Positions 14,056-61,896 are shown, numbered from the stretch's first letter. The stretch is 61,896 nt of DNA from an uncultured Candidatus Saccharibacteria bacterium (GCA_965231155.1 OZ246418.1:746194-808089), one strand, 5' to 3'. Translations and numbers: made by a program. Notes: generated from the sequence alone by a model not told the origin.

Positions 14056-14730
14056 TTAAAATTGGAATGACTCTCCTATCTCTAACGGTCTAAAGTCGGC
14101 CCAGCCACCATCGAAATATTTCTCCCACATCAAGTACTGTCGCTCACGAAACTGATCGAGCACAAATCCGTCATGACAAGGAATAATATGCTGGGCCTGA
14201 ATCGACTGGGCAAACTCGGCAATCTCTGAAACCTTTCCCCAGGGAGCAAGGATTGGCAAAGCCAACACCTTAATGCCCTTGAGCTCTCTTAACGAATAAC
14301 TCAAAGAATCGCCAGTCGTGAGGAAGGTTTCATTCACAAGGAAGGCGGTATTTTTAGGAGTCGGCATGAGAAGCTGTTCGTGATCGGCTTCAATAGCGCG
14401 TACCCGAAGACTGCCAATTTTTTTCTCCTCGCTTTCGAAAATTGTACACGCGATATTCTCTTTATTTAAAACTTCCTGCACGTCAGAGTTTGTAAAAACT
14501 AACGCACCAGGGTTATTCCTGAGGGTTTTTTTCAGGGCTTCGATATCGAGATGATCGGGATGACTGTGTGTGATAAAAACGGCCTGGATATCAGTGAAGA
14601 TATCTGGATTCACCCGGCCCTCCATAAAAGAAAATATTCCAGGGTCAAAAAGGATACGATCACTCCCCTCCTCAACCAAAAAACAGGAATGGAAATATTT
14701 TGTGAGTTGCATATCTGTCGAGTATATCAA
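14056..14730 (-). CDS. MBL-fold metallo-hydrolase
   Basis: HSHPDH (the HxHxDH motif), with further His/Asp ligands downstream. Confidence 0.8.
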   Translation of the reverse strand: MIYSTDMQLTKYFHSCFLVEEGSDRILFDPGIFSFMEGRVNPDIFTDIQAVFITHSHPDHLDIEALKKTLRNNPGALVFTNSDVQEVLNKENIACTIFESEEKKIGSLRVRAIEADHEQLLMPTPKNTAFLVNETFLTTGDSLSYSLRELKGIKVLALPILAPWGKVSEIAEFAQSIQAQHIIPCHDGFVLDQFRERQYLMWEKYFDGGWADFRPLEIGESFQF

Positions 14731-15842
14731 ACAATCACGCCACCGCCCAAAAGTTGCCCTTTAGTATCATAAAAAACCGCCGACTGACCTGGGGCCACAA
14801 ACCGTTGTGCCTCCTTGAAAGTCAGAGCAAACTCTTCTCCTTTCTTATACAATCGGGCAGGAGAAAGCTTCTGGCGATATCGAACCCTGGCGAACACTGC
14901 CAAACCGGTCTTAGGAATCGATACCTTTAGAGAAGTAGTACTGAAATTCCTGAAGAGTAGTTCTTTTTTATAAAGTGCTTCGTGATTCCCCCCTTCGGCG
15001 ACAACAAGAGTGTTTGTTTCTACGCTTTTTGAAACCACATAATGAGCCTTGGTGTCCACCTCACCATGAATCCCCAACTCACGATTCTTACTTTTCAGAT
15101 CTAGGCCATGTCGCTGACCAATCGTATAAAACGTCGCCCCTTCGTGCTCGCCAATCTTTTTTCCCTCAGTTGTAATAATTTCTCCTTTCTTTTCTGGAAT
15201 GTAATCTTTGAGAAACTCAACGATAGAAACCTTGCCTAAAAAGCAAATTCCCTGAGAGTCCTTTTTCTCGGCAGTTGAGAGCTTGGCCTTTTTGGCAATT
15301 ACCCGCACTTCCGATTTCAGGTACTCACCAATCGGAAAGATACAGTGCTTCAGTTGCTTTTGCGTCAGCGTCCACAAAAAATACGACTGATCTTTGTTTT
15401 TGTCTTTGGCTTCAAAAAGTTTGTAAACACTCTGATTCTTTATTTTTGTTTTTTTAACCCTTACGTAATGCCCAGTGGCCACGTAGTCCGCGCCCATCGA
15501 TAACGCCTTCTCTAAAAATAAACCGAACTTAATCTCCCGATTACACATGACATCCGGATTGGGCGTGAGGCCTTTGCGGTAGCCATCGATCATATATTCA
15601 ACGACACGTTTTTTATACTCGTCCTCGAAATCCCAGGTGTAAAAAGGAATTTCCAACTGACCAGCGACCCGACGCGCATCTTCGGCGTCTTCTTCGGCAC
15701 ACCCATCGATATTATAGGAACGCATGAATACGCCCACGAGGTTGTAGCCCTGCTTCTTTAAAAGATAGGCGGTAACGGAAGAATCCACGCCTCCCGACAT
15801 CCCCACGAAGACAGTTTTCTTATTTTTTATAGTTGACCGCAT
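14727..15842 (-). CDS. mnmA: tRNA-specific 2-thiouridylase MnmA
   Basis: PP-loop VGMSGGVDSS, the catalytic Cys context and DSQGICFLG. Confidence 0.95.
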   Translation of the reverse strand: MRSTIKNKKTVFVGMSGGVDSSVTAYLLKKQGYNLVGVFMRSYNIDGCAEEDAEDARRVAGQLEIPFYTWDFEDEYKKRVVEYMIDGYRKGLTPNPDVMCNREIKFGLFLEKALSMGADYVATGHYVRVKKTKIKNQSVYKLFEAKDKNKDQSYFLWTLTQKQLKHCIFPIGEYLKSEVRVIAKKAKLSTAEKKDSQGICFLGKVSIVEFLKDYIPEKKGEIITTEGKKIGEHEGATFYTIGQRHGLDLKSKNRELGIHGEVDTKAHYVVSKSVETNTLVVAEGGNHEALYKKELLFRNFSTTSLKVSIPKTGLAVFARVRYRQKLSPARLYKKGEEFALTFKEAQRFVAPGQSAVFYDTKGQLLGGGVIV

Positions 15843-19166: not shown

Positions 19167-20768
19167 CTATTGCGTAATTTCTTTTACCTGATCCAGAGCT
19201 TCAGCCCAACGCTGGGTAGCCCGTGAATCCGGATATTTTTCGGCATACAGCGCCACGCAGTGCTCTGCAGCCTTGAGGAGATGTGGCAAGGACTCAGGGT
19301 CGAATTCCTGGGAGAACTTTGCTGCCTCCCAAAATTCTTCTGCCTGCCACCACCCCTTCTCTTCATCGGAGAAAGGAGTAGTGAGACCTGCGTACCCTTG
19401 TGCCACCATGAGCGCGGGCAAAACTTCGATCACGTCACTCATGAGCGAATCGAGATCCTCTCGGTTCTTCATCGCCCACCAGGTGAGCGAAATCCCGAGC
19501 TCTCGCTTGTTATTCGCGAGATCATTGGGATCCCACTGGTCGTGGTGGCGCCAGAGTGTCCGTCCCGCCTCGATCCAGTACCCGGTACACCGAGCGATCG
19601 CCTGGCTGAACATCTCGTCCTTCACTTCCGGTCGCCTCGTCACCTCTTTCAGGAGCTGAAGAATCTCCGGATGTGTGATGAGGCGTCCGAATCGGTTGAT
19701 GATGACCGACGTCGGGAAGAGCGCGTAGAGTTGCTCCACCGTCTCCCGAGTCTCCTGGATTGGAACGTTCGCCGACCGCAGAATCTCCTTGGTCGACTTC
19801 CTCACCGGATCCCGAGACTCCAAAAAGGCAATCTGGGATAGTCCGGGGAGATCGTTGATTTCGACGGGCTCGAGTGCATAAAACGTGAGGAAGGCTCGAT
19901 CATCGGGGATGGTTCTCTCCCACTGATCGAACGTGACTTGGAACTGAAAACCTTGGATGGCACCCTTGACTCGGGTGATGCCGAGGCGTTCCATTCCTCG
20001 AAAAACTTCCCACACCTGCTCGTAGGTCGTCCCGGGGAGCAGGCGGCAGTGGTACGGAATAGCCCCGTGTCCCGCGGGAGTGTGGCCGTGGTGGTGATCG
20101 TGATCATGGTGATGATCGTGGTCACAGCCGTGGTGGTGATCATGATCGTGGTGATGACCGTGGTCACAGCCGGCCCCATGGATATGCCCAGACTCGAGTA
20201 CCCACCCCGGCAGACCCGTCTCCCGTGGAATCAGGAAAACCGGAAGTCCCGGAGCATTCTCCTCGACATACTCCATGATGGCAGCCAGTCGAGGATCTTC
20301 GATCTCCAAAATATCCTCGGGGAACTTGGTGAGTCCAACACCAGCGGTTGCCGCTTGGAGCTGACTCCTCATGATCTCCCCAAAAACCTTCCGGTTGCGG
20401 TCGAAGTTCTCGACGTCGAGAAGCGCAACAATGCGGAATGCAATGCCGCATGACTTGAGGAACGTGAGCGTCTCGTTGCCCGAGACAAACCCGAACCCCT
20501 CGAGTACGATTCCCGCCGTCTCACCCTGCTTGTCCAGCTCCAAGAGGAGGCGCTGGAGTTCGCCCTCGTCGCTGCAGGTGAAGCAACCATTGGCCATCGG
20601 CAGCACTTCGGCCAGATCACGGAGCAACGCCCCGTCGATCGTGTCCGAACTCCCGTCGTCGTTGATGACATACTTCCAAGAACCGAAAAGTACTCCGGAC
20701 TTGAAAGTGTGCCGTGCAAGCGTCGTTTTGCCAGACCCCGGAGGGCCGACAAAGCCAAGAACGTCCAT
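19167..20768 (-). CDS. CobW/G3E-family GTPase metallochaperone with a His-rich insert and an extra ~230-aa C-terminal domain
   Basis: P-loop GPPGSGKTT, GCFTCS (a variant of the CobW CxCC motif) and HGHHHDHDHHHGCDHDHHHDHDHHHGH. It is GC-rich, has AAAGGAG before the ATG, and carries a Zur-like box in its promoter. Confidence 0.85.
   Translation of the reverse strand: MDVLGFVGPPGSGKTTLARHTFKSGVLFGSWKYVINDDGSSDTIDGALLRDLAEVLPMANGCFTCSDEGELQRLLLELDKQGETAGIVLEGFGFVSGNETLTFLKSCGIAFRIVALLDVENFDRNRKVFGEIMRSQLQAATAGVGLTKFPEDILEIEDPRLAAIMEYVEENAPGLPVFLIPRETGLPGWVLESGHIHGAGCDHGHHHDHDHHHGCDHDHHHDHDHHHGHTPAGHGAIPYHCRLLPGTTYEQVWEVFRGMERLGITRVKGAIQGFQFQVTFDQWERTIPDDRAFLTFYALEPVEINDLPGLSQIAFLESRDPVRKSTKEILRSANVPIQETRETVEQLYALFPTSVIINRFGRLITHPEILQLLKEVTRRPEVKDEMFSQAIARCTGYWIEAGRTLWRHHDQWDPNDLANNKRELGISLTWWAMKNREDLDSLMSDVIEVLPALMVAQGYAGLTTPFSDEEKGWWQAEEFWEAAKFSQEFDPESLPHLLKAAEHCVALYAEKYPDSRATQRWAEALDQVKEITQ
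20088..20171. repeat. 2 x 42-nt tandem repeat encoding the His/Asp-rich metal-binding stretch
   Basis: Units 20088-20129 and 20130-20171 are near-identical. Each encodes roughly GCDH(G/D)HHHDHDHHH on the minus strand. Confidence 0.8.
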
Positions 20769-34420: not shown

Positions 34421-34474
34421 GTAGACACCTTTTGAAAACAATAAAGGAAGTCCTTGTTTTCAGGAGGTGTCTAC
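34421..34474 (-). terminator. long nested hairpin at the rpoD stop codon
   Basis: GTAGACACCT...GAAAACAA-N12-TTGTTTTC...AGGTGTCTAC. There is no clear T-run. Confidence 0.5.
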
Positions 34475-35745
34475 GTAAGATTCTCGAATCCCTCGAGCGC
34501 CTTGGCGTGACGGTGATCACGAATCTTTTCCAAAGCCTTGGCTTCAATCTGTCGGATACGCTCGCGAGTGACGCCAAATACCTTACCCACTTCTTCTAAA
34601 GTATGAGTCACACCGTCCTCGAGTCCAAAACGCATGGAAAGAATCTTCTGCTCGCGCTCAGATAAATCGTTCATAATATCCTTAATCAGATCCTGTAAAA
34701 GTGAGCGAGCGGTACTCTGAGCCGGAGTGACGTTTTTCTCATCAGCAATAAAATCGGAAAGCGTGGAATCCTCCTCGTCGCCAACTGGCGCTTCGATAGA
34801 AAGCACTTCTTGGGAAATCTTCTGAATTTGGTGAACTTTTTCGACATCGATACCCATCTCCACGGCGATTTCTTCCGGCAGCGGATCGCGGCCAAGCTCC
34901 TGAAGTAAGGCGCGACGAGCCTGAGTGTATTTCGACATTGTCTCCACCATGTGCACTGGAATACGGATTGTACGAGAGAAGTCAGCCAGGGCACGGGTGA
35001 TAGCCTGACGAATCCACCAAGTGGCGTAGGTTGAAAATTTGAAACCCTTGCGATAATCAAACTTATCTACGGCACGAGAGAGACCAATATTTCCTTCCTG
35101 AATCAAATCCAGAATACTCAAATTTGGCGTGCGATTCACATATCGCTTGGCGATGGAAACCACGAGACGCAAGTTGGCCTTCATTAAGGCCTGGCGAGCA
35201 TCCTCATCGCCTTTTTCAGCGCGCTTAGCCAGATCTTTTTCTTCGTCTTTAGTTAAAAGTGGTGTACGACCAATTTCTTTAAGATAGACCTGGACCGCGT
35301 CCGGCACATCTCCTTCAATACGCGACGCATTCTCTAGCTCCTTCTGAGTTACTTCATTCTCCTTCGAAGTAATATCCAAAAGACTTCCCGTCTCAATAAT
35401 TTTTATATTTGCCTTGTCGAGGCGATCGTAAATCTGGTCAAGCAGAAGAATGTTGTCCTCAATATTGGGAAATGAAAAAAGAATTTCGTTATCGGTGACG
35501 AATCCACGAGGACGACCGCGTTCGATAAGTTCGGTCAGTGCCTGCTCATCAAGCTTCCCACCTCCCTTAGAAGATTTTTTAGAAGCTTTTGAGGCAACTT
35601 TCTTGGTCGCTTTTTTGACTACTTTTTTGGCCGGCTTTTTAACCGCCTTTTTCTTTTTGACAACCACTTTCTTTTTGGCCGGCTTTTTTATTTTCTTCAC
35701 CGCACTCTTCTTCACAATCTTTTTATTCTTTTTTTTCATTTTCAT
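34471..35745 (-). CDS. rpoD: primary sigma-70 factor RpoD with a lysine-rich N-terminal tail
   Basis: Regions 1.2-4 are recognisable ([55 protein letters not shown]). The first ~60 aa are K/A/V repeats. An alternative leaderless start is ATG at 35739. Confidence 0.95.
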
Positions 35746-37603: not shown

Positions 37604-38557
37604 CTAAAGTTCAGCTAACCCTTCTTGCAATACCTTCAGGAAATCTTCATGGGGAATCTGGGAGGGTTTTACGCCAACTGGGTTTAGTCCGCCATTCTGG
37701 ATGGAGTTCGTAGCTGGATCATAGTACCAGTCTGGTACTTCCTTAATTCTTCCGCGACTCGTCAGTTGTCGCATATCGAGAGGATAGATCTTTTTCTGAT
37801 ACTGCATCTCAGCGGCGCGAATTTTCGCGGCGAGCATTCGCAAATCGATTCTCTTCGTTGGTCGAGTAAGCACATTTACATGACCAGAAGAAAGCTTCTG
37901 CACTACCACATCGTAACGGCCCCCCTGACCCGAACGAAGATAGCCAGCTAGACTACTATTGTCTGAAGCGATGAGAACTACTTTTAACTTCTTATCACGT
38001 TGGTGAACGGTCAATTCTTCGGCCTCACCGCTCAACATCTTGTTCGCAAACTCTTCTGGAAGTTCTTTCGTTCTTCGATACTCCTCCGCATAGTGTGCTT
38101 CAAAAAAAGGCAAAACAAGTTCCACCACACGAGATGGGTTCTCGGCGAAATGACGGTTCAGAGCTACCACCAACCCAGAAAGACCAAACGCACGATCTAA
38201 CGCATCAGTAGAGATAATTCCTTTACCGTAGAAATCATCGCGACGCGCATACTCGAAAAGTTTGGCGAGGGCGGGATCGTCGGTGAGACTTAGTGCGGCG
38301 GCAATAAGATCGGTCGCCGTTGTCTGCACCTTCGAAGCGTGATGATCGAAAGGACCAGCTCCGATATCAATCAGAAAATATCCTTGAGCGCGAAGTTTCT
38401 CTTCAGTCTCTCCTTCCGGCATTAACTGCCAGAAATCCATTTTTGCAGTCGAAACTCCCGGAAAAAATTTCTCGCCGAACTTCTTCAGCAAAAAAACAGC
38501 GATCAGCGTATCTGGCTGCGCCCTATTGGGTAGAACAATTGTGGTATACTTCTCCAT
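37604..38557 (-). CDS. hypothetical protein (317 aa; a GAGPFDHH motif hints at a metal-dependent phosphoesterase)
   Basis: A clean ORF, but I cannot assign a family from sequence alone. Confidence 0.55.
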   Translation of the reverse strand: MEKYTTIVLPNRAQPDTLIAVFLLKKFGEKFFPGVSTAKMDFWQLMPEGETEEKLRAQGYFLIDIGAGPFDHHASKVQTTATDLIAAALSLTDDPALAKLFEYARRDDFYGKGIISTDALDRAFGLSGLVVALNRHFAENPSRVVELVLPFFEAHYAEEYRRTKELPEEFANKMLSGEAEELTVHQRDKKLKVVLIASDNSSLAGYLRSGQGGRYDVVVQKLSSGHVNVLTRPTKRIDLRMLAAKIRAAEMQYQKKIYPLDMRQLTSRGRIKEVPDWYYDPATNSIQNGGLNPVGVKPSQIPHEDFLKVLQEGLAEL

Positions 38558-38622: not shown

Positions 38623-39156
38623 ATGAAACGCGTATTTTTCTCTTTCCACGTCCCACAGGAGAGGGCCGAGAAGTTAATCGAAGGACTCAATGCTAAAAAT
38701 CTGCCGATAGTTCTTTATCCTTCAGAAAATCTCCACATCACACTGAAGTTTATCGGCGAAGTGACCGATCTTGATTTAGAAAAAGTCATCGCTCTTGGCG
38801 AGTCGGTAGCAAAAAATGCGCCAAGTCGAAAGATTGATTTTATCCCACGACATTTCTCTATTGAAAATGGCCGATTGCGAATTGGCGTAAAGCTTAATGA
38901 CGATATGATTAATCTTCATCGCAGTATGACCGAAGCACTTTTAAATGCACGGATTGGAAAGATTGATAACCGACCATACGCACCACACATCACGATTGGC
39001 CGACCGGGAGAACGTTTCAATATTGATGAGTTAAATATGTTTGAGACCGAACGATTTTTGTTTCCACTCACCGAGTTTGGCCTCTACGAAAGTCAGCCGG
39101 GTTCGCAGAATCTTGGTGAGTACTCTTTGATTCGTAGTTTCGGACTACAGAAATAA
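38623..39156 (+). CDS. 2H-phosphoesterase: RNA 2',3'-cyclic phosphodiesterase / 2'-5' RNA ligase (LigT/ThpR family)
   Basis: Two HxT/S motifs: HITLKF and HITIGR. Confidence 0.8.
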   Translation: MKRVFFSFHVPQERAEKLIEGLNAKNLPIVLYPSENLHITLKFIGEVTDLDLEKVIALGESVAKNAPSRKIDFIPRHFSIENGRLRIGVKLNDDMINLHRSMTEALLNARIGKIDNRPYAPHITIGRPGERFNIDELNMFETERFLFPLTEFGLYESQPGSQNLGEYSLIRSFGLQK

Positions 39157-39245
39157 AAAGAGCCTCGATCCCGAAGGAAAGAAGCTCTAATGGTTTTGGA
39201 GAGAGTTTATAAAGAGTCTCTCCGTTCTCTTGCGCTCAACTGCGC

Positions 39246-39998
39246 TTAGGCCGCCACCTCGACGCTAGCCGACTTCATCCGCTGAATCCCTTCGAGGATC
39301 CCCGGGACGAAGCCGTTGTTGTCGCGGTCGAGTCCTGAAGTGGGCGTCTGTGCCAGCAACGATTCCTCGGACGGATCCGAGAAGTCGTACTGACTCATGA
39401 AGCGCCGCTCCAACAGCACGTAGTGGGCAGTGCCGTTCTGGATTCTCACTCCGAGATTCCAGATCACGACCTTGCCATTCGACTCGACCTTGACCAGGTA
39501 GCTCCCCAACTTGGCGTCGGGAATCTTGTCCTCGGTCTGCGCCTTCTTGTTGCGGTCGAGGACGACGAACGCACAGCCGTTGGTCGACGCCGGCAGTCCG
39601 AGATCGAACCCGCGGAAACGGTTACCGCCGACGTAGTAGGCGCGAAACGCCCCCTGCTCGGTCTTGGCCGTTACGGTCGGCGTGAGGATGTCCGTCCCCA
39701 CCCGCATCCGCCCCAGAACATCGAGGTGAATCGGAATGAATTCCTGGGACTCGCAGAATCCACGCTGGTCCGGAGTGGCGCGGGTTACGCCAGTCTCGGA
39801 AAGCGGAGCCACATTCATGGCCTGCCACTTGCCTTCGACTTCTTTCGGGACGAACTCGACCTTCCAGCCAGCCATCAGGAAACGAAGCCCCTGAGACTGC
39901 CGGATTTTCGACTCGTGAGCGAAGTACGTTTTACCGTCGTCGCCCTCGATGAAGAAAACGCCCTTGGTGTTGTTGGCGATCTTTACGGTACCTTTCAT
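39246..39998 (-). CDS. GC-rich hypothetical protein with an N-terminal cold-shock/OB-like domain (250 aa)
   Basis: GTVKIANNTKGVFFIEGDDGKTYFAHESKI resembles the CspA GTVKWFN..KGFGFI....D.FVH pattern. The remaining 180 aa are unrecognised. GAAGGAG precedes the ATG. Confidence 0.6.
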   Translation of the reverse strand: MKGTVKIANNTKGVFFIEGDDGKTYFAHESKIRQSQGLRFLMAGWKVEFVPKEVEGKWQAMNVAPLSETGVTRATPDQRGFCESQEFIPIHLDVLGRMRVGTDILTPTVTAKTEQGAFRAYYVGGNRFRGFDLGLPASTNGCAFVVLDRNKKAQTEDKIPDAKLGSYLVKVESNGKVVIWNLGVRIQNGTAHYVLLERRFMSQYDFSDPSEESLLAQTPTSGLDRDNNGFVPGILEGIQRMKSASVEVAA

Positions 39999-40095
39999 GA
40001 CTCGACTCCTTCTGGCTTACGACTCTACGCCGCAGCCTGTCTATAGGGTTGATGCCGCTTTTAACTAGTTGAGCACTTCTCGATGATCTGAATAT

Positions 40096-40123
40096 ATTAT
40101 AGCATTTATTATGCAAATGTCAA
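40096..40123 (-). promoter_or_regulatory. consensus sigma-70 promoter for 39246-39998
   Basis: TTGACA (40123-40118), 16-nt spacer, TATAAT (40101-40096); about 90-nt 5' UTR. Confidence 0.6.
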
Positions 40124-40161
40124 TAATAGGAAATCTTCCTACTACTGAATAGAAAACAAAG

Positions 40162-40197
40162 AAAAAAGGCCTAGCTGGATTGCTCCAGGCTAGGCCT
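40162..40197 (-). terminator. intrinsic terminator of 40225-41295
   Basis: The minus strand reads AGGCCTAGCCTGG-agcaat-CCAGCTAGGCCT followed by TTTTTT. Confidence 0.75.
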
Positions 40198-40224
40198 TGT
40201 GGGGTGGGGTTGTATCTGAAACCC

Positions 40225-41295
40225 CTAGTTCCTCCTTTCCGTAAGATTGATGAAAGCGCGACGCAGGTCGCGGTGGAATCGCGCCGCGAGACGCTGTTTC
40301 GCGGGCGGCAGGGCGCTGATGGCCGGCGCCTCGAAGCGCAGCCACTTGGCGGGGAGCCAAGTCCCAGATCGGACGATCTCGGTGTAGTCGATGTTGAAGG
40401 CTTCCAAGGGGGCAACGATCGCTCCCTTCTCCGTCTTCCGGACTTCGACAAGCAGCCCAAACGGCTGCCGGTACGCGACCCCGACCTTCTCGCCAGGGAC
40501 GTACAACGCGACCTTCCCCGCTTCGGCCTTCAAGGCGTCGAACAGGGTTGCCGTTGCCTTCTTCGCGAACGGCTGAAAGCCCGCACGGAACTTCTCGCGC
40601 TCCGCCTTCTGCCGAGCTTCCTCGGCATCACGTTCGGCCTTGATCTTCTCGAACTCGGCGTTCCAGAAGACATCGGCCTTCGCCTTCAACGTCTGGATGA
40701 CGAGGTCGCCACCCGGACAGTGAGAGATGAAGCGCTTCGCCTTGCCACCGAGAACCGGCAACTTGACCGTCAGGTGCTTGTTGGTCGGCGACACCTCGAA
40801 CACTTCCTGAAGGAAGGGCTGGTTGACGTAGGAGACGTCTCCCGGGCGAAGCCACTTGAGACACTCCGTGCCGAGATGGGCCAACTGTCGCAACCCGAAC
40901 ACGTTCGCCGGGTACATCTCGATGGCCGCGGTCATGAACTTCAGGACCATCAAGTTTCGCTTGATCGCGACCTCGGCCGGGGCGATCGTCGGTGGGTTCG
41001 GGTTGCGGGGATCGAAGTACTCACAGATCTGACCTCCCGCATCCTTTTCCCACTGCGCGATTTCCGGCAAGTAGGCATCCCGGACTTCGGCATCTTCTAG
41101 TCCGAGCTGGTCGGCGTTCTTCTCGAACTCCTCGCGTCCGACAAGCAGATTGTCAGCTACCGATTCCTCGATCTCCTTCCGGTCCTGCCTGCTCGGAACC
41201 CTGGAACGACTGATCGTCTTCTTCGGACGGGCAGTTTGGTTGTCCGCAGACGGTTCAGTAATTGCTGCTGCACGCAGAGATGTGACTTTCGACAT
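40225..41295 (-). CDS. GC-rich hypothetical protein (356 aa) with a central charged coiled-coil segment
   Basis: GAAGGAG lies 6 nt before the ATG, and the gene has its own promoter and terminator. No family recognised. Confidence 0.6.
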   Translation of the reverse strand: MSKVTSLRAAAITEPSADNQTARPKKTISRSRVPSRQDRKEIEESVADNLLVGREEFEKNADQLGLEDAEVRDAYLPEIAQWEKDAGGQICEYFDPRNPNPPTIAPAEVAIKRNLMVLKFMTAAIEMYPANVFGLRQLAHLGTECLKWLRPGDVSYVNQPFLQEVFEVSPTNKHLTVKLPVLGGKAKRFISHCPGGDLVIQTLKAKADVFWNAEFEKIKAERDAEEARQKAEREKFRAGFQPFAKKATATLFDALKAEAGKVALYVPGEKVGVAYRQPFGLLVEVRKTEKGAIVAPLEAFNIDYTEIVRSGTWLPAKWLRFEAPAISALPPAKQRLAARFHRDLRRAFINLTERRN

Positions 41296-41429
41296 GACGT
41301 TCTCCTTCGATGGTTGAGGTTCGCTTTTGAGAGCGAAGTCCTAGGGTTGCGTAACTTCTGGCGTGTGCGTTTTCCTCCTTTTATTTCGCACGGTTAGGTA
41401 TTCAGTTGTGGCAATTCTGACTGTTTATT

Positions 41430-41458
41430 ATTATAAACTAAAATAAAAAGCCTGTCAA
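41430..41458 (-). promoter_or_regulatory. consensus sigma-70 promoter for 40225-41295
   Basis: TTGACA (41458-41453), 17-nt spacer, TATAAT (41435-41430); about 128-nt 5' UTR. Confidence 0.6.
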
Positions 41459-41477
41459 TACAATGTATCGCAGGCTT
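41441..41477 (-). terminator. hairpin terminator of the beta-CASP gene, overlapping the next promoter's -35
   Basis: The minus strand reads AAGCCTG-N16-CAGGCTT followed by TTTATTTT. The TTGACA lies in the loop and 3' arm. Confidence 0.5.
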
Positions 41478-42894
41478 ATAACGTATAAACTTCTCCTAAC
41501 TGAACGGCAGTTGTCGGTCTTGGGGATTCAGAAACGATGTCCTCCATCGCCTCTTTATCTCCGTGGACCGTCAGTACACGTCCATTCGGAACCACCTCCT
41601 CAATTGTCTGGAGGATCTCCTGCCCATCCATATGGGCGGAGAGATGGAATCTAAGAATTCGAGCGTTCACTCGAATCTCTTCCCCATCAATCATCATGCT
41701 ATCTCCAGGTCGCATCTTTGAGAGATGGTGACCGGTCGAGCATGGATCCTGATGGGCGGTCAGAGAAATTCGATTCGAAGGATCTGGAGCAAGACGCTTC
41801 AGATACCCGCGCGAATACCCATGACTATACATGCCGTGCGGAGCGATGAGCACCGCCGGCTGGGAGTCTCGGAGGACACGCTCTCTCATTGCGTGACTCC
41901 GCATGAAGTAACGCTCGAGTCGACGCTCCTCTTTTTCCACGCCCATGGCATAGAGCTTGGTAACATGCCGAGCGGCGCCGTCGATATAGACCGGCCACCT
42001 CTCGGTGATTCCATAGGCTTCGAGGATTGCCAGGATCTCCTGCGACCGACCGATGGTCAGTGCACCGAAGAGAAACTTCCCACCTCCTCGGAGACACTGC
42101 TCGACTTCAGTTGCAAGATAGTCACAGACTTCGAACCGAGGTGGCGCTGAACGACCACCATAGGTCGACTCAGTGATGAGATAGTCAACAGACTGTCCCT
42201 TCGGCATCTCGGCCGGGGCAACGGTCTGCTGTGAACTCCGACTCATATCTCCGGTGACGAAGATACGGACCGGCGAACCACCTGTCTGGATTGTCACCAA
42301 AGCACTCACTGCCCCTCGAATGTGTCCAGCCCCGAAGAACTGAATCGAAAGCCAGGACTCTGGTTCAACGATCTGCCCTTCGCTCACGTAGCGAATTCGA
42401 GGATAGAGCCACTGTACATCTTCCTCTTCGAAGAGTGGTTTCTGTCCTCGACTCCGAGCGATGCGGATCCCATCATTCCAGATCCATTCACTGATTTGAT
42501 GTGTTCCCCGCGTCATGAAAAACTGCGCCTCAGGAAACTTCCTTCCAAGCCAGGGAAACGCCGCGATGTGATCAACATGAGGATGCGTCCCCACGACGTA
42601 AAGCCGTTTCAGACTCTTCAGTACATCATACGTCGGGAGATGATCCCGACCGGCAAGCGCCAGATACTCCGACGAACCTTCGATTGGTAAGTCGGCTCTC
42701 CGGATAATCCTTTTTGGGGAAAGTTCCGGGGCTGTGATGATTTTTCGCTCTTCTCTTTCAACCCGGTCTGGGTAAAGACCGAAGTCGAACAGCACCCCCA
42801 CATCACCACACCGCAGAAGATGAGCGCTCCCTCCAATTCCGGGCAGGACTCCTCGAGGATCGAGGGCTCCACCCAAAGCAATGAACTCGACCAT
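41476..42894 (-). CDS. beta-CASP family metallo-beta-lactamase nuclease (RNase J / CPSF73-like)
   Basis: HPHVDHIAAF (HxHxDH), GAGHIRGA, ITESTYG, HLSAHMDGQE and TVHGD motifs. The start is taken at ATG 42894, with GGAGG 6 nt upstream, rather than the track GTG at 42924. Confidence 0.8.
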   Translation of the reverse strand: MVEFIALGGALDPRGVLPGIGGSAHLLRCGDVGVLFDFGLYPDRVEREERKIITAPELSPKRIIRRADLPIEGSSEYLALAGRDHLPTYDVLKSLKRLYVVGTHPHVDHIAAFPWLGRKFPEAQFFMTRGTHQISEWIWNDGIRIARSRGQKPLFEEEDVQWLYPRIRYVSEGQIVEPESWLSIQFFGAGHIRGAVSALVTIQTGGSPVRIFVTGDMSRSSQQTVAPAEMPKGQSVDYLITESTYGGRSAPPRFEVCDYLATEVEQCLRGGGKFLFGALTIGRSQEILAILEAYGITERWPVYIDGAARHVTKLYAMGVEKEERRLERYFMRSHAMRERVLRDSQPAVLIAPHGMYSHGYSRGYLKRLAPDPSNRISLTAHQDPCSTGHHLSKMRPGDSMMIDGEEIRVNARILRFHLSAHMDGQEILQTIEEVVPNGRVLTVHGDKEAMEDIVSESPRPTTAVQLGEVYTL

Positions 42895-42947
42895 AGACGA
42901 CCTCCAAGAAACACTTTTTTGCACGACAGAATCGTGTGGCTTGTCTA

Positions 42948-42976
42948 TAAATACAATAAATTATACTATAGGTCAA
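42948..42976 (-). promoter_or_regulatory. promoter for the beta-CASP gene (divergent from the suhB-like promoter)
   Basis: TTGACC (42976-42971), 17-nt spacer, TATTTA (42953-42948). Confidence 0.45.
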
Positions 42977-42978
42977 TA

Positions 42979-52116: not shown

Positions 52117-52533
52117 TTAGGCGGCATCAGCGTCGGCGATGCGAGTCGGCAATGGACGAACGTACGGCGGGGGTATGCGCCCCTCGAGCACATCGATGAC
52201 GAGGTTAAACTCTGGCCCGAATCGGACCTGGGTATCACTACCCGCCTCCGTCCACCACTGACCAAGAACAGAAATGTTGGTCGTTGAACAACCCAACTCT
52301 TTCGCCAGCTTCATAAGAAGCGCTTCGTACTCATCCCTCTCTAAGGGGAAGGTCTGCGGTGCGAGAAACTGACAGACCCCCGGATACTGACGGGAAAGTT
52401 GCGCCCGACGGCTCATGGGCATACTCGCCCAATGAAGTCGCGCGTCAGCGATGCTCATCCCTGGAGGGAAGCCCCCAGCATCCAGGAACTGAGCAAAGCG
52501 CTGGTAGTCCCCGACCGTTTTCAACTTTTTCAT
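52117..52533 (-). CDS. GC-rich hypothetical protein (138 aa)
   Basis: GAAGGAAAG before the ATG, with its own promoter and terminator; no family recognised. Confidence 0.55.
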   Translation of the reverse strand: MKKLKTVGDYQRFAQFLDAGGFPPGMSIADARLHWASMPMSRRAQLSRQYPGVCQFLAPQTFPLERDEYEALLMKLAKELGCSTTNISVLGQWWTEAGSDTQVRFGPEFNLVIDVLEGRIPPPYVRPLPTRIADADAA

Positions 52534-57334: not shown

Positions 57335-57856
57335 TTACTTCTTCTGTCCGGCGATCTCTTCGTTGATCTCGTCGACCACCTCCTGGACAATCCCGGCGAA
57401 ATCCGCCGGAAAAATCGCTCGGGCGATCTCGGAAATGTACTTCTGGATGATGAGGTACACAAACGGCGACTGACCGACCAATGGATGATTGATGGGCTTG
57501 CCGGTGAAACCATTCACGCCATTCTCGAGGTCGTAAAGAGCAAGTGTCGCCCCCATGATGAACCCGTGCGGAACGAGTTCACCGTTTACGTAGTCAGCGA
57601 GGAATTCCCCGAATTTGTAGATGACCTCAGTCTGACCAGGTAGGTGCTCGCGAAGGTTTCGGAGACAATCCCGGATCACACCGTCAGGCGCCGCAACTGT
57701 GGCCGTGGCCGTCTTCAGAGCTTTCCGTGGATTCTTCTCGTCAAGGAATGGCATGGAGGGTTGGCGTCCGCGCTTCCCCTTTTCATGAGCGTGATCCACC
57801 ACCTTCTCGGCGTAGGTCGTCGGAAAAACCGGCAACGAATCGAGATTTCTCTTCAT
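57335..57856 (-). CDS. GC-rich hypothetical protein (173 aa)
   Basis: AGAGAGGA before the ATG, with its own promoter and terminator; no family recognised. Confidence 0.55.
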   Translation of the reverse strand: MKRNLDSLPVFPTTYAEKVVDHAHEKGKRGRQPSMPFLDEKNPRKALKTATATVAAPDGVIRDCLRNLREHLPGQTEVIYKFGEFLADYVNGELVPHGFIMGATLALYDLENGVNGFTGKPINHPLVGQSPFVYLIIQKYISEIARAIFPADFAGIVQEVVDEINEEIAGQKK

Positions 57857-61002: not shown

Positions 61003-61235
61003 GAGTTCTCGTTAGGTAATACATACAACACACCACACGAGGTGGTGTTCCACTCTTAATCAGTATATCGGGAAACAACAAAAAAACAAAATGAATTATT
61101 CTTTTGTGACTTCCATGAATTAAAAGAGCTTTTTAGTTATCCCAATCGCCTTCCATCTTTCTTGAAAAGATTAAAGAAGGGCTTGCTCAACTCGAAAGTT
61201 GAGATCGCCTAACAAAAAATAAATTTTTTGTATAG

Positions 61236-61896
61236 TTTAATTGTTCCACGCACAGCTTCCGCTACGCGTGCCTTGTTACGACTTAGTCCTCATTACTAAG
61301 CTTAGGCTAGCTCCACCGAAATGGGTCTTCACCTACTCCCAGCTCTGCTGACTTGACGGGCAGTGAGTACAGGACTCGAGAACGTATTCACCGCGGCGTG
61401 GCTGATCCGCGATTACTAGCAATTCCGGCTTCATGGGGGCGAGTTGCAGCCCCCAATCCGTACTGGGGTCGGGTTTAAGGGATTAGCTCCACCTTGCGGT
61501 TTGGCAACCCGTTGTCCCGACCATTGTAACACGAGTGTCGCCCAGGGTATCAAGGGCCACGCTGATTTGACGTCATCCTCTCCTTCCTCCCCCGTTAGAA
61601 ACCGCGAACCATTGCTGGCTCTCGAACTCTAACGGGGGCAGTTTCCAGTGACACTTGTAACACCGGATAAGGGTTGCGCTCGTTACCCCAATTAAGGGAA
61701 CATCTCAAGACACGAGCTGACGACAACCGTGCAACACCTGTCCTAGTAGTCCTTGCGGAGGGCCAACGTTTCTGCCGGCTTACTACTAAGATTTCTAACC
61801 CTGGTAAGGTTCCTCGCTTAACGTCGAATTAAACCTCATGTTCCACTGCTTGTGCGAGTCCCCGTCTATTCCTTTGAGTTTTAAGCTTGCGCTCGT
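61236..61896 (-). rRNA. 16S rRNA, 3' portion (partial; continues beyond the window)
   Basis: The reverse complement contains AAGTCGTAACAAGG, ...CUGCCCGUCA..., GGAUGACGUCAA and ACGAGCGCAACCC-type blocks. Helix 45 is CACGCGTAGC-GGAA-GCTGTGCGTG (61256-61247 is the 3' arm). The 3' boundary is approximate. Confidence 0.9.

Follow-up and report, generated by a model that had tools for sequence, protein, structure and literature searches.

Organization of the locus

The stretch of DNA analysed here (the window: 61,896 nucleotides of an uncultured Candidatus Saccharibacteria bacterium from groundwater, GCA_965231155.1 OZ246418.1:746194-808089) contains three consecutive open reading frames (ORFs) on its minus strand, as the original prediction for this locus had proposed. 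In the direction of reading, they encode a beta-CASP nuclease (41476-42924), a protein of 356 amino acids (aa) referred to below as the partner (40225-41295), and a 250-aa protein with an N-terminal cold-shock domain (CSD; 39246-39998). The GC content is 0.55-0.63 across the cluster versus approximately 0.45 in the flanks, and the intergenic regions of the cluster are AT-rich. The studied locus was compared with the loci L004, L005, L006, L163-L167 and L007. For hairpins and untranslated regions (UTRs), folding energies were expressed as z scores relative to shuffled controls.

A CPSF73/aCPSF1-like nuclease

The nuclease ORF can be extended to a GTG at 42924, which gives the 482 aa originally assumed. 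Translation most likely starts at the ATG at 42894, yielding a protein of 472 aa (41476-42894, minus strand), because this codon is preceded by GGAGG 7 nt upstream, the corresponding M-x-F/L-x-ALGGALDP is the start of all homologues, and a length of 472 aa is also given by public gene calls.

The assignment to the beta-CASP family proved correct. The protein matches the Pfam models Beta-Casp (E 7.5e-14, 52.7 bits, cutoff 27.7) and RMMBL (E 4.5e-9, 36.6 bits, cutoff 21.6), and its motifs THPHVDH (HxHxDH), AGH, TGD, ESTYG, SAH and VHG align to the PH1404/FttA structures; THPHVDH, AGH and TGD are unchanged throughout the alignment of the nuclease clade. The RMMBL domain is accompanied by a histidine at motif C (VHG), the combination that marks the RNA-acting branch of the family. 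An RNase J identity was rejected: RNase J models and structures were absent among the NCBIfam and PDB matches at the thresholds used, and the protein ends directly after motif C. Its nearest relatives are aCPSF1/FttA, CPSF73, Cas14 and TTHA0252, the best PDB matches being 3af5, FttA and CPSF73 (E 1e-37 to 1e-29).

The match to aCPSF1 is partial. The NCBIfam aCPSF1 model is matched at E 1.8e-46 over positions 214-609 only; its cutoff is 580 bits and the match reaches 158.7, and the score lies far under every other equivalog cutoff as well. The N-terminal KH domains of aCPSF1 are missing (no KH domain was found in the Pfam scan). The nuclease differs from aCPSF1 and CPSF73 also by a clade-specific N-terminus, ALGGALDPxG..IGGS, by a variable insert at approximately aa 40-95, and by being bacterial and paired with a partner that has no archaeal or eukaryotic counterpart. 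Judging from these features, the protein is predicted to be a CPSF73/aCPSF1-like beta-CASP ribonuclease with intact catalytic motifs and without an RNA-binding accessory domain of its own.

The nuclease resembles the TTHA0252-type enzymes, i.e. the common beta-CASP proteins of Patescibacteria (about 430-460 aa), in fold family, length and lack of accessory domains. The common proteins are, however, only 24-28% identical to it, form a separate clade and have no partner-type neighbour.

A more distant beta-CASP protein (595 aa, 32% identical) is encoded without a partner gene at 8001-9788 of L007, 5 kb from a gene for a 245-aa protein with a C-terminal CSD (14705-15442). This region also contains transposase, ParA-like and duplicated sigma-factor genes, and the pair may represent a different nuclease/CSD association, carried on a mobile element.

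The partner protein

The partner gene (40225-41295, minus strand) encodes an orphan, with no match in Pfam, NCBIfam, PHROGs, PADLOC or the PDB, where its profile returned noise only. Word-indexed search of 5.8 billion protein clusters recovered the query alone, and an exhaustive HMMER search of 1.84 billion representatives recovered the query and one weak relative (P0043). No match to the partner or to the C-terminal domain of the CSD protein was found by tblastn in the phage collection. The protein has a basic N- and C-terminus, a beta domain, and a central, charged long helix that is likely a coiled coil.

Remote homologues were identified beside other members of the nuclease clade. The window protein (W_356) is related to the 360-aa protein of L165 (E 2e-17) and to L004_474 (E 9e-7), the L004 protein to that of L006 (E 9e-37), and the L005 protein to both; a fragment from L164 matches the N-terminus of the L004 protein (E 5e-8). 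The L006 partner start in the public annotation (2705) falls inside a perfect promoter (2678-2706), and the true start is probably the ATG at 2816, with GAGGAGG upstream of it. Contigs from sibling samples were 100% identical, giving no population variation. Dual coding of the partner gene was considered and rejected, as its long antisense ORF is not conserved (93 codons in L005).

The CSD fusion and other third genes

The presence of an N-terminal cold-shock domain in the 250-aa protein (39246-39998, minus strand) was confirmed by a match to Pfam CSD, PF00313, at aa 1-64 (E 8e-9, 35.7 bits, cutoff 27). The gene shares this segment with the CspA family, and its extended 5' UTR and its promoter, which is very strong, are likewise usual for csp genes. 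The protein differs from that family by a degenerate RNP1-like motif, scores far under the Csp equivalog cutoffs, and a fused beta-rich domain of about 185 aa, of unknown fold, with the conserved tail ESLLAQTPTSG...SASVE. A word-indexed search of 5.8 billion protein clusters with the C-terminal domain returned the query only, and scanning the IMG/VR viral collection with the CSD profile gave matches to the generic CSD part only. One orthologue is known (L163/L165), 46-49% identical over the full length. The last 40 residues or so of the fusions are near-invariant between the species (window 39246-39380; L165 gene 10001-10831), with the pattern ESLLAQTPTSG...VP.I..GIQ...SASVE, and this tail could be a docking peptide.

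The gene at the third position varies. In L004 it encodes a protein of 264 aa whose C-terminus matches the CSD weakly (E 0.003, short of the Pfam cutoff), in L006 a NUDIX protein (E 1.6e-4) and in L005 an unknown protein, and none of these is homologous to the C-terminal domain of the window CSD fusion. Wherever identifiable, the third genes are RNA-related: CSD in the window and L165, weak CSD in L004, and NUDIX in L006.

Recurrence of the nuclease and the partner

Four full-length relatives of the nuclease (33-42% identical in BLASTP) were recovered, and the next gene on the same strand after each of them encodes an unannotated protein of 370-500 aa. The order nuclease-partner was found in 5/5 loci in which both sides are visible, despite different flanks (dnaG-rpoD, ftsH or dprA-topA) and divergence of the nucleases to 33-43% identity. 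The five partner-associated nucleases form one clade in the tree, and among approximately 165 fetched loci the partner family was found beside this clade only. The idea of a nucleic-acid-directed gene cluster was therefore upheld in the form of a nuclease and a partner, linked in five loci by a conserved junction. A third gene of CSD type was seen again in two or three loci. Scans of genomes and metagenomes with the nuclease profile gave no new close members, generic HxHxDH matches dominating, and a full-text literature search on beta-CASP proteins in Patescibacteria found nothing.

A close relative, GCA_964360585.1 (contigs L163 and L165-167), shares the chromosomal backbone of the window, i.e. 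LepA and an ABC transporter followed by dnaG-rpoD-alaS, with identities of 94% for RpoD, 84% for AlaRS, 80% for ABC-3, 73% for DnaG and 67% for the ABC ATPase. Between the ABC transporter and dnaG, L165 contains only the genes of the 360-aa partner and a 276-aa CSD fusion; no nuclease, suhB-like, LigT or 317-aa gene (see below) is present within its 20.8 kb. The partner and CSD genes are thus resident at the dnaG-rpoD site in this lineage. Since they occupy the same site without the nuclease, suhB-like and LigT genes, the trio is neither an inserted island nor obligate, contrary to the proposed insertion between LigT and the suhB-like gene.

The partners of the window and L165 are only 26% identical, and a comparable discrepancy exists between L004 and L006 (60% for FtsH, 36% for the nuclease, 28% for the partner). 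The sequences indicate that the module evolves far faster than its neighbours.

Promoters, terminators and leaders

The only two perfect (12/12) sigma-70 promoters in the whole 61.9-kb window drive the partner gene (41430-41458, TTGACA-17-TATAAT) and the CSD gene (40096-40123, TTGACA-16-TATAAT, with TG ahead of the -10 box), both on the minus strand. The third promoter claimed, upstream of the nuclease (42948-42976, minus strand, TTGACC-17-TATTTA), is present when the sequence is read directly but is a weak candidate that was not reported by the consensus scan. At the equivalent place the nuclease promoters of L004 and L006 are stronger, that of L004 being perfect. The partner promoter is perfect or near-perfect in 6/6 loci, and L165 retains a perfect one though no nuclease lies upstream.

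The predicted ribosome-binding boxes and terminators were found for all three genes. GGAGG or GAAGGAG lies 6-8 nt ahead of each ATG, and every gene ends in a hairpin followed by a T-run: after the nuclease (41448-41477; -15.4 kcal/mol, z -6.4), after the partner (40160-40198; a 14-bp GC-rich stem with one bulge, then T6; z -5.6) and after the CSD gene (39159-39223; two hairpins, the second with the T-run, convergent with the LigT gene; z -3.5), all on the minus strand. From these signals, each gene is predicted to form its own transcription unit.

The terminator of the nuclease and the promoter of the partner are fused. Directly after the stop codon of the nuclease comes a hairpin whose 3' arm is the -35 box TTGACA, paired with an upstream TGTCAA; the T-run of the hairpin serves as the promoter spacer and is followed by TATAAT (TACAAT in L164) and, in most loci, by a CAG that is conserved where the transcript is predicted to begin. 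This arrangement is common to the window, L004, L005, L006 and L164, with z from -5.4 to -7.2 in 5/5, and the stems vary by compensatory changes, e.g. CAGGC/GCCTG versus CAAGC/GCTTG.

Long 5' UTRs had been noted in the original prediction, and lengths of about 91 nt (CSD gene) and about 128 nt (partner; 41296-41423, minus strand) were obtained; the 47 nt given for the nuclease fits the ATG at 42894. The leaders do not carry structured elements: none folds better than its shuffles (z -0.01, +0.67 and +0.55, the second value being that of the partner leader), and no Rfam match was found at E 0.6 or better, so neither hallmark of a structured cis-regulatory UTR is seen.

A different feature of the partner leaders is a strong Shine-Dalgarno (SD)-like box at +16 to +45, present in 5/6 and located 60-170 nt before the true ribosome-binding site (AAGGAGG at 41374-41380 in the window). 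Four of the five boxes are not followed by a usable start codon; in L005, a mini-ORF of three codons comes after the box. The probability that a given leader contains a box of this kind by chance is 0.01-0.15. In Bacillus, the STAB-SD element shields mRNAs from 5'-3' decay. The box resembles this element, and a stabilizing function may be inferred from its sequence and position. Similarity to the RNase J/RppH/STAB-SD logic of Bacillus extends to the proximity of a beta-CASP RNase gene and a NUDIX gene in one locus (L006) and to the non-initiating SD-like boxes far ahead of the start codon, whose function would be the same by analogy; the nuclease itself, however, is not an RNase J orthologue.

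Codon composition and mRNA structure

The GC content at third codon positions (GC3) is 0.80 in the window CSD gene and 0.78 in the partner gene, as compared to 0.54-0.55 in the nuclease gene and a window mean of 0.47. The sharp compositional jump noted previously is thus real as a rise in GC, but it does not delimit a uniformly GC-rich foreign island, as the value for the nuclease indicates. High GC3 is often seen in the third gene, and it is a property of the partner in all loci (L004, 0.72; L005, 0.71; L006, 0.68; L164 fragment, 0.69; L165, 0.65): partner and CSD genes range from 0.65 to 0.80, host genes from 0.19 to 0.58. The nucleases of L004 and L164, which are sisters in the tree and 43% identical, are at host GC3 (0.29 and 0.25), while the adjoining partners are at about 0.7.

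That this bias has outlasted substantial divergence speaks against one recent transfer, and for either selection acting on the partner gene at the nucleotide level or its repeated replacement from a GC-rich pool. The evidence is against the latter, as the protein, phage and viral collections yielded no donor and, the conserved junctions being AT-rich, replacement would need ORF-precise swaps. Expression-linked codon bias was rejected as an explanation, since GC3 is 0.41-0.48 in rpsB, tsf, efp and rpoD.

To quantify mRNA structure, the mean minimum free energy of 150-nt windows was compared with synonymous shuffles, in which third bases were exchanged only between synonymous codons with identical first and second bases and the same following base. 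These shuffles preserve the protein, codon usage and dinucleotides, and plain codon shuffles agreed. Excess structure was detected in 3/5 partner genes (z -5.6 in the window, -5.4 in L004, -5.0 in L005), in both CSD genes (-4.3 in the window, -5.05 in L165) and in the window nuclease gene (-4.95). The nucleases of L004, L005 and L006 gave z from -1.6 to -2.7, and 17 housekeeping controls from +1.05 to -3.2. Per 150 nt, the native sequences reach about -52 to -60 kcal/mol, as compared to -30 to -40 for typical host genes. Excess mRNA structure is frequent in the module but not universal. A single long hairpin or a repeat was rejected as its source, as none accounts for the excess.

Other GC3-rich genes occur in the window. 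A second patch of high GC is formed by the ORF at 19167-20768 (minus strand; 533 aa; GC 0.57, GC3 0.68, mRNA z -3.8 to -4.6), which encodes a GTPase domain of the CobW/HypB/UreG type at its N-terminus (Pfam E 1e-11). Two further minus-strand ORFs, at 52117-52533 (138 aa, GC3 0.64) and 57335-57856 (173 aa, GC3 0.68), have no Pfam match and lie just downstream of 11/12 promoters (52617-52590 and 57940-57912, respectively), and in the first of these the T-run of a terminator immediately precedes the -35 box. Orphan genes with high GC3 and strong promoters seem to form a class in this genome.

Neighbouring genes

The genes around the cluster are housekeeping genes, none of them associated with defence or mobile elements. 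The LigT/ThpR identity of the gene at 38623-39156 was confirmed by a score above the TIGR02258 cutoff. The RNA-repair link suggested for it was not: LigT is absent from every other locus, so its adjacency is incidental. The 317-aa protein encoded at 37604-38557 (minus strand) has only a sub-threshold match to DUF6687, and its gene has an 11/12 promoter of its own (38599-38571); like the LigT and suhB-like genes, it is missing from the syntenic region of L165. RpoD (34471-35745, minus strand) is extended at its N-terminus by a long lysine-rich segment that its L165 orthologue shares; outside this segment the two proteins are 94% identical. A bacterial 16S rRNA gene is truncated by the end of the window, which contains its 3' part (61234-61896, minus strand; Rfam 566 bits).

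A possible role in RNA metabolism

Based on these observations, we suggest that the cluster is a lineage-restricted RNA-metabolism module of a small group of Patescibacteria, a reading to which we give a probability of about 0.45. It builds on directly established features, i.e. domain identity, motif integrity, adjacency, the junction, promoters and terminators, and the composition and folding statistics. The archaeal enzyme aCPSF1 has endonuclease and 5'-3' exonuclease activity, and its KH domains set the choice of the cleavage site (PMC3553952). The bacterial nuclease would be a CPSF-type endo/5'-3' exoribonuclease without its own RNA binder, and would obtain substrate binding in trans, much as the KH domains of aCPSF1 provide it in cis. 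The partner would then be an adaptor, scaffold or regulator that interacts with the nuclease, the CSD protein would act as an RNA chaperone, and the NUDIX protein that takes its place elsewhere as an RNA-end enzyme. Fusion of the terminator with the promoter, together with separate transcription units, would permit partner and CSD levels well above that of the nuclease, and both proteins are probably made independently of the nuclease and in much larger amounts. Their mRNAs may, moreover, be built to be long-lived amid an active endo/5'-3' exoribonuclease, as suggested by a very high GC3, internal structure in excess of the shuffles, strong hairpins at the 3' end and an SD-like box in the 5' leader.

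Several observations weigh against this proposal. L165 keeps the partner and CSD genes without the nuclease, and no nuclease orthologue from its population was found in the protein search, so a strict need for the nuclease is lacking. Separate transcription is unusual for the components of a tight complex, and the third gene does not belong to one family. Neither structure nor domain evidence connects the partner with RNA or with the nuclease, and the AlphaFold2 models of the partner (pLDDT 46, from a 2-sequence alignment) and of the CSD protein (pLDDT 38, from a single sequence) are of low confidence. The mRNA z scores of the L165 and L006 partners are only -0.3 and -1.5. Finally, with six or seven known loci, the co-occurrence statistics are thin.

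Alternative explanations

The module could instead be a conflict system, anti-phage or toxin-antitoxin-like, in which the nuclease would be the effector, the partner its inhibitor or a sensor of the invader, and the CSD or NUDIX protein an accessory. The extremely fast divergence of the partner between the window and L165 (26% identity, and 46% for the CSD protein, while the neighbours retain 67-94%, e.g. 94% in RpoD, 84% in AlaRS and 73% in DnaG) would be expected of such a system, as would the comparison of L004 with L006 given above, the rare and patchy distribution with loss of the nuclease in L165, and the atypical codon composition. In the window, the partner promoter is strong and the nuclease promoter weaker, a layout reminiscent of an antitoxin made in excess, and the nearest PDB relatives of the nuclease include Cas14 of type VII CRISPR-Cas, a CPSF-like beta-CASP protein that works with partners (PDB 8yhd, E 4e-29; NCBIfam cas14, E 8e-34). 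Yet the nuclease reaches 116.9 bits against a Cas14 cutoff of 800 and lacks the C-terminal Cas14 extension, no CRISPR array was found (no spaced repeats at 30-52 kb in the window), and no Cas domains or Cas7/Cas5 genes occur among the neighbours in the window. Nine proteins from four loci, i.e. nucleases, partners and third genes, had no system match in PADLOC-DB v2, save one weak hit to the generic CSD_V model, in agreement with the initial failure to match the trio to any named system. Likewise, the genes are not co-transcribed, their chromosomal position is kept between species among housekeeping genes, phage homologues of the partner and of the CSD C-terminal domain were not found, and the perfect promoter of the L004 nuclease would be ill-fitting for a tightly repressed toxin. 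The defence or toxin role raised originally thus gained no positive evidence, and we consider it rather unlikely.

It is quite unlikely, to a slightly greater degree, that the three genes lie side by side without any functional relationship. In that case the partner and CSD proteins would be abundant proteins with a task of their own (e.g. general binding of RNA or the nucleoid), and the nuclease an ordinary RNase located upstream by chance. Such an arrangement would readily account for a promoter and terminator in each gene, for the partner and CSD genes of L165 standing without a nuclease, and for third genes that differ between loci; it is hard to reconcile with adjacency in five loci that have differing flanks and nucleases at 33-43% identity, with the confinement of the partner to this nuclease clade, and with the conserved fused junction. 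A bolder form of the proposed RNA-metabolism role, which we consider improbable, is a Patescibacteria-specific RNA-decay machine, in which the nuclease would work with a hypervariable adaptor and an RNA chaperone whose mRNAs escape it by their GC3 of about 0.7-0.8, extra structure and STAB-SD-like box; this would amount to self-protection by codon choice, maintained by selection also where the GC3 of the genome is about 0.25. The view from which the original prediction started, i.e. a GC-rich three-gene island recently acquired between LigT and the suhB-like gene and sharing a theme with LigT, is very improbable. Its GC of 0.55-0.63 against about 0.45 in the flanks and the orphan status of the partner and the CSD C-terminal domain would suit a foreign origin. 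Nevertheless, this view is largely refuted by L165, where the partner and CSD genes occupy the same dnaG-rpoD-proximal site without LigT, suhB or the nuclease. The L004 and L164 nucleases at host GC3 (0.25-0.29) next to partners at about 0.7 are also unlike the result of a single recent transfer, LigT is missing from all other loci, and neither the 5.8 billion protein clusters nor the viral collections yielded a donor. ORF, domain and repeat checks detected no integrase, transposase, tRNA flank or direct-repeat boundary at the cluster, so that, with a relative carrying two of its genes at the same site, the usual marks of a mobile element (such genes, repeats or a tRNA at the flanks, and an empty site in relatives) are not seen.

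Implications for Patescibacteria

The nuclease fold and the CSD are of known kinds. The partner family, the C-terminal domain of the CSD fusion, the nuclease-partner junction and the host-independent signature of GC3 and mRNA structure appear to be undescribed. Patescibacteria have tiny genomes and a poorly understood RNA turnover, and the cluster points to a distinct CPSF73-like clade with a dedicated partner among them. A single gene that holds a GC3 of about 0.7 in a host at about 0.25, beside a nuclease gene that has equilibrated, is an unusually clean natural example, and the anomaly of the partner gene makes selection on the structure and stability of mRNAs accessible to testing. Should the partner regulate or target the nuclease, this would constitute a new bacterial mode of organizing a CPSF-type enzyme.

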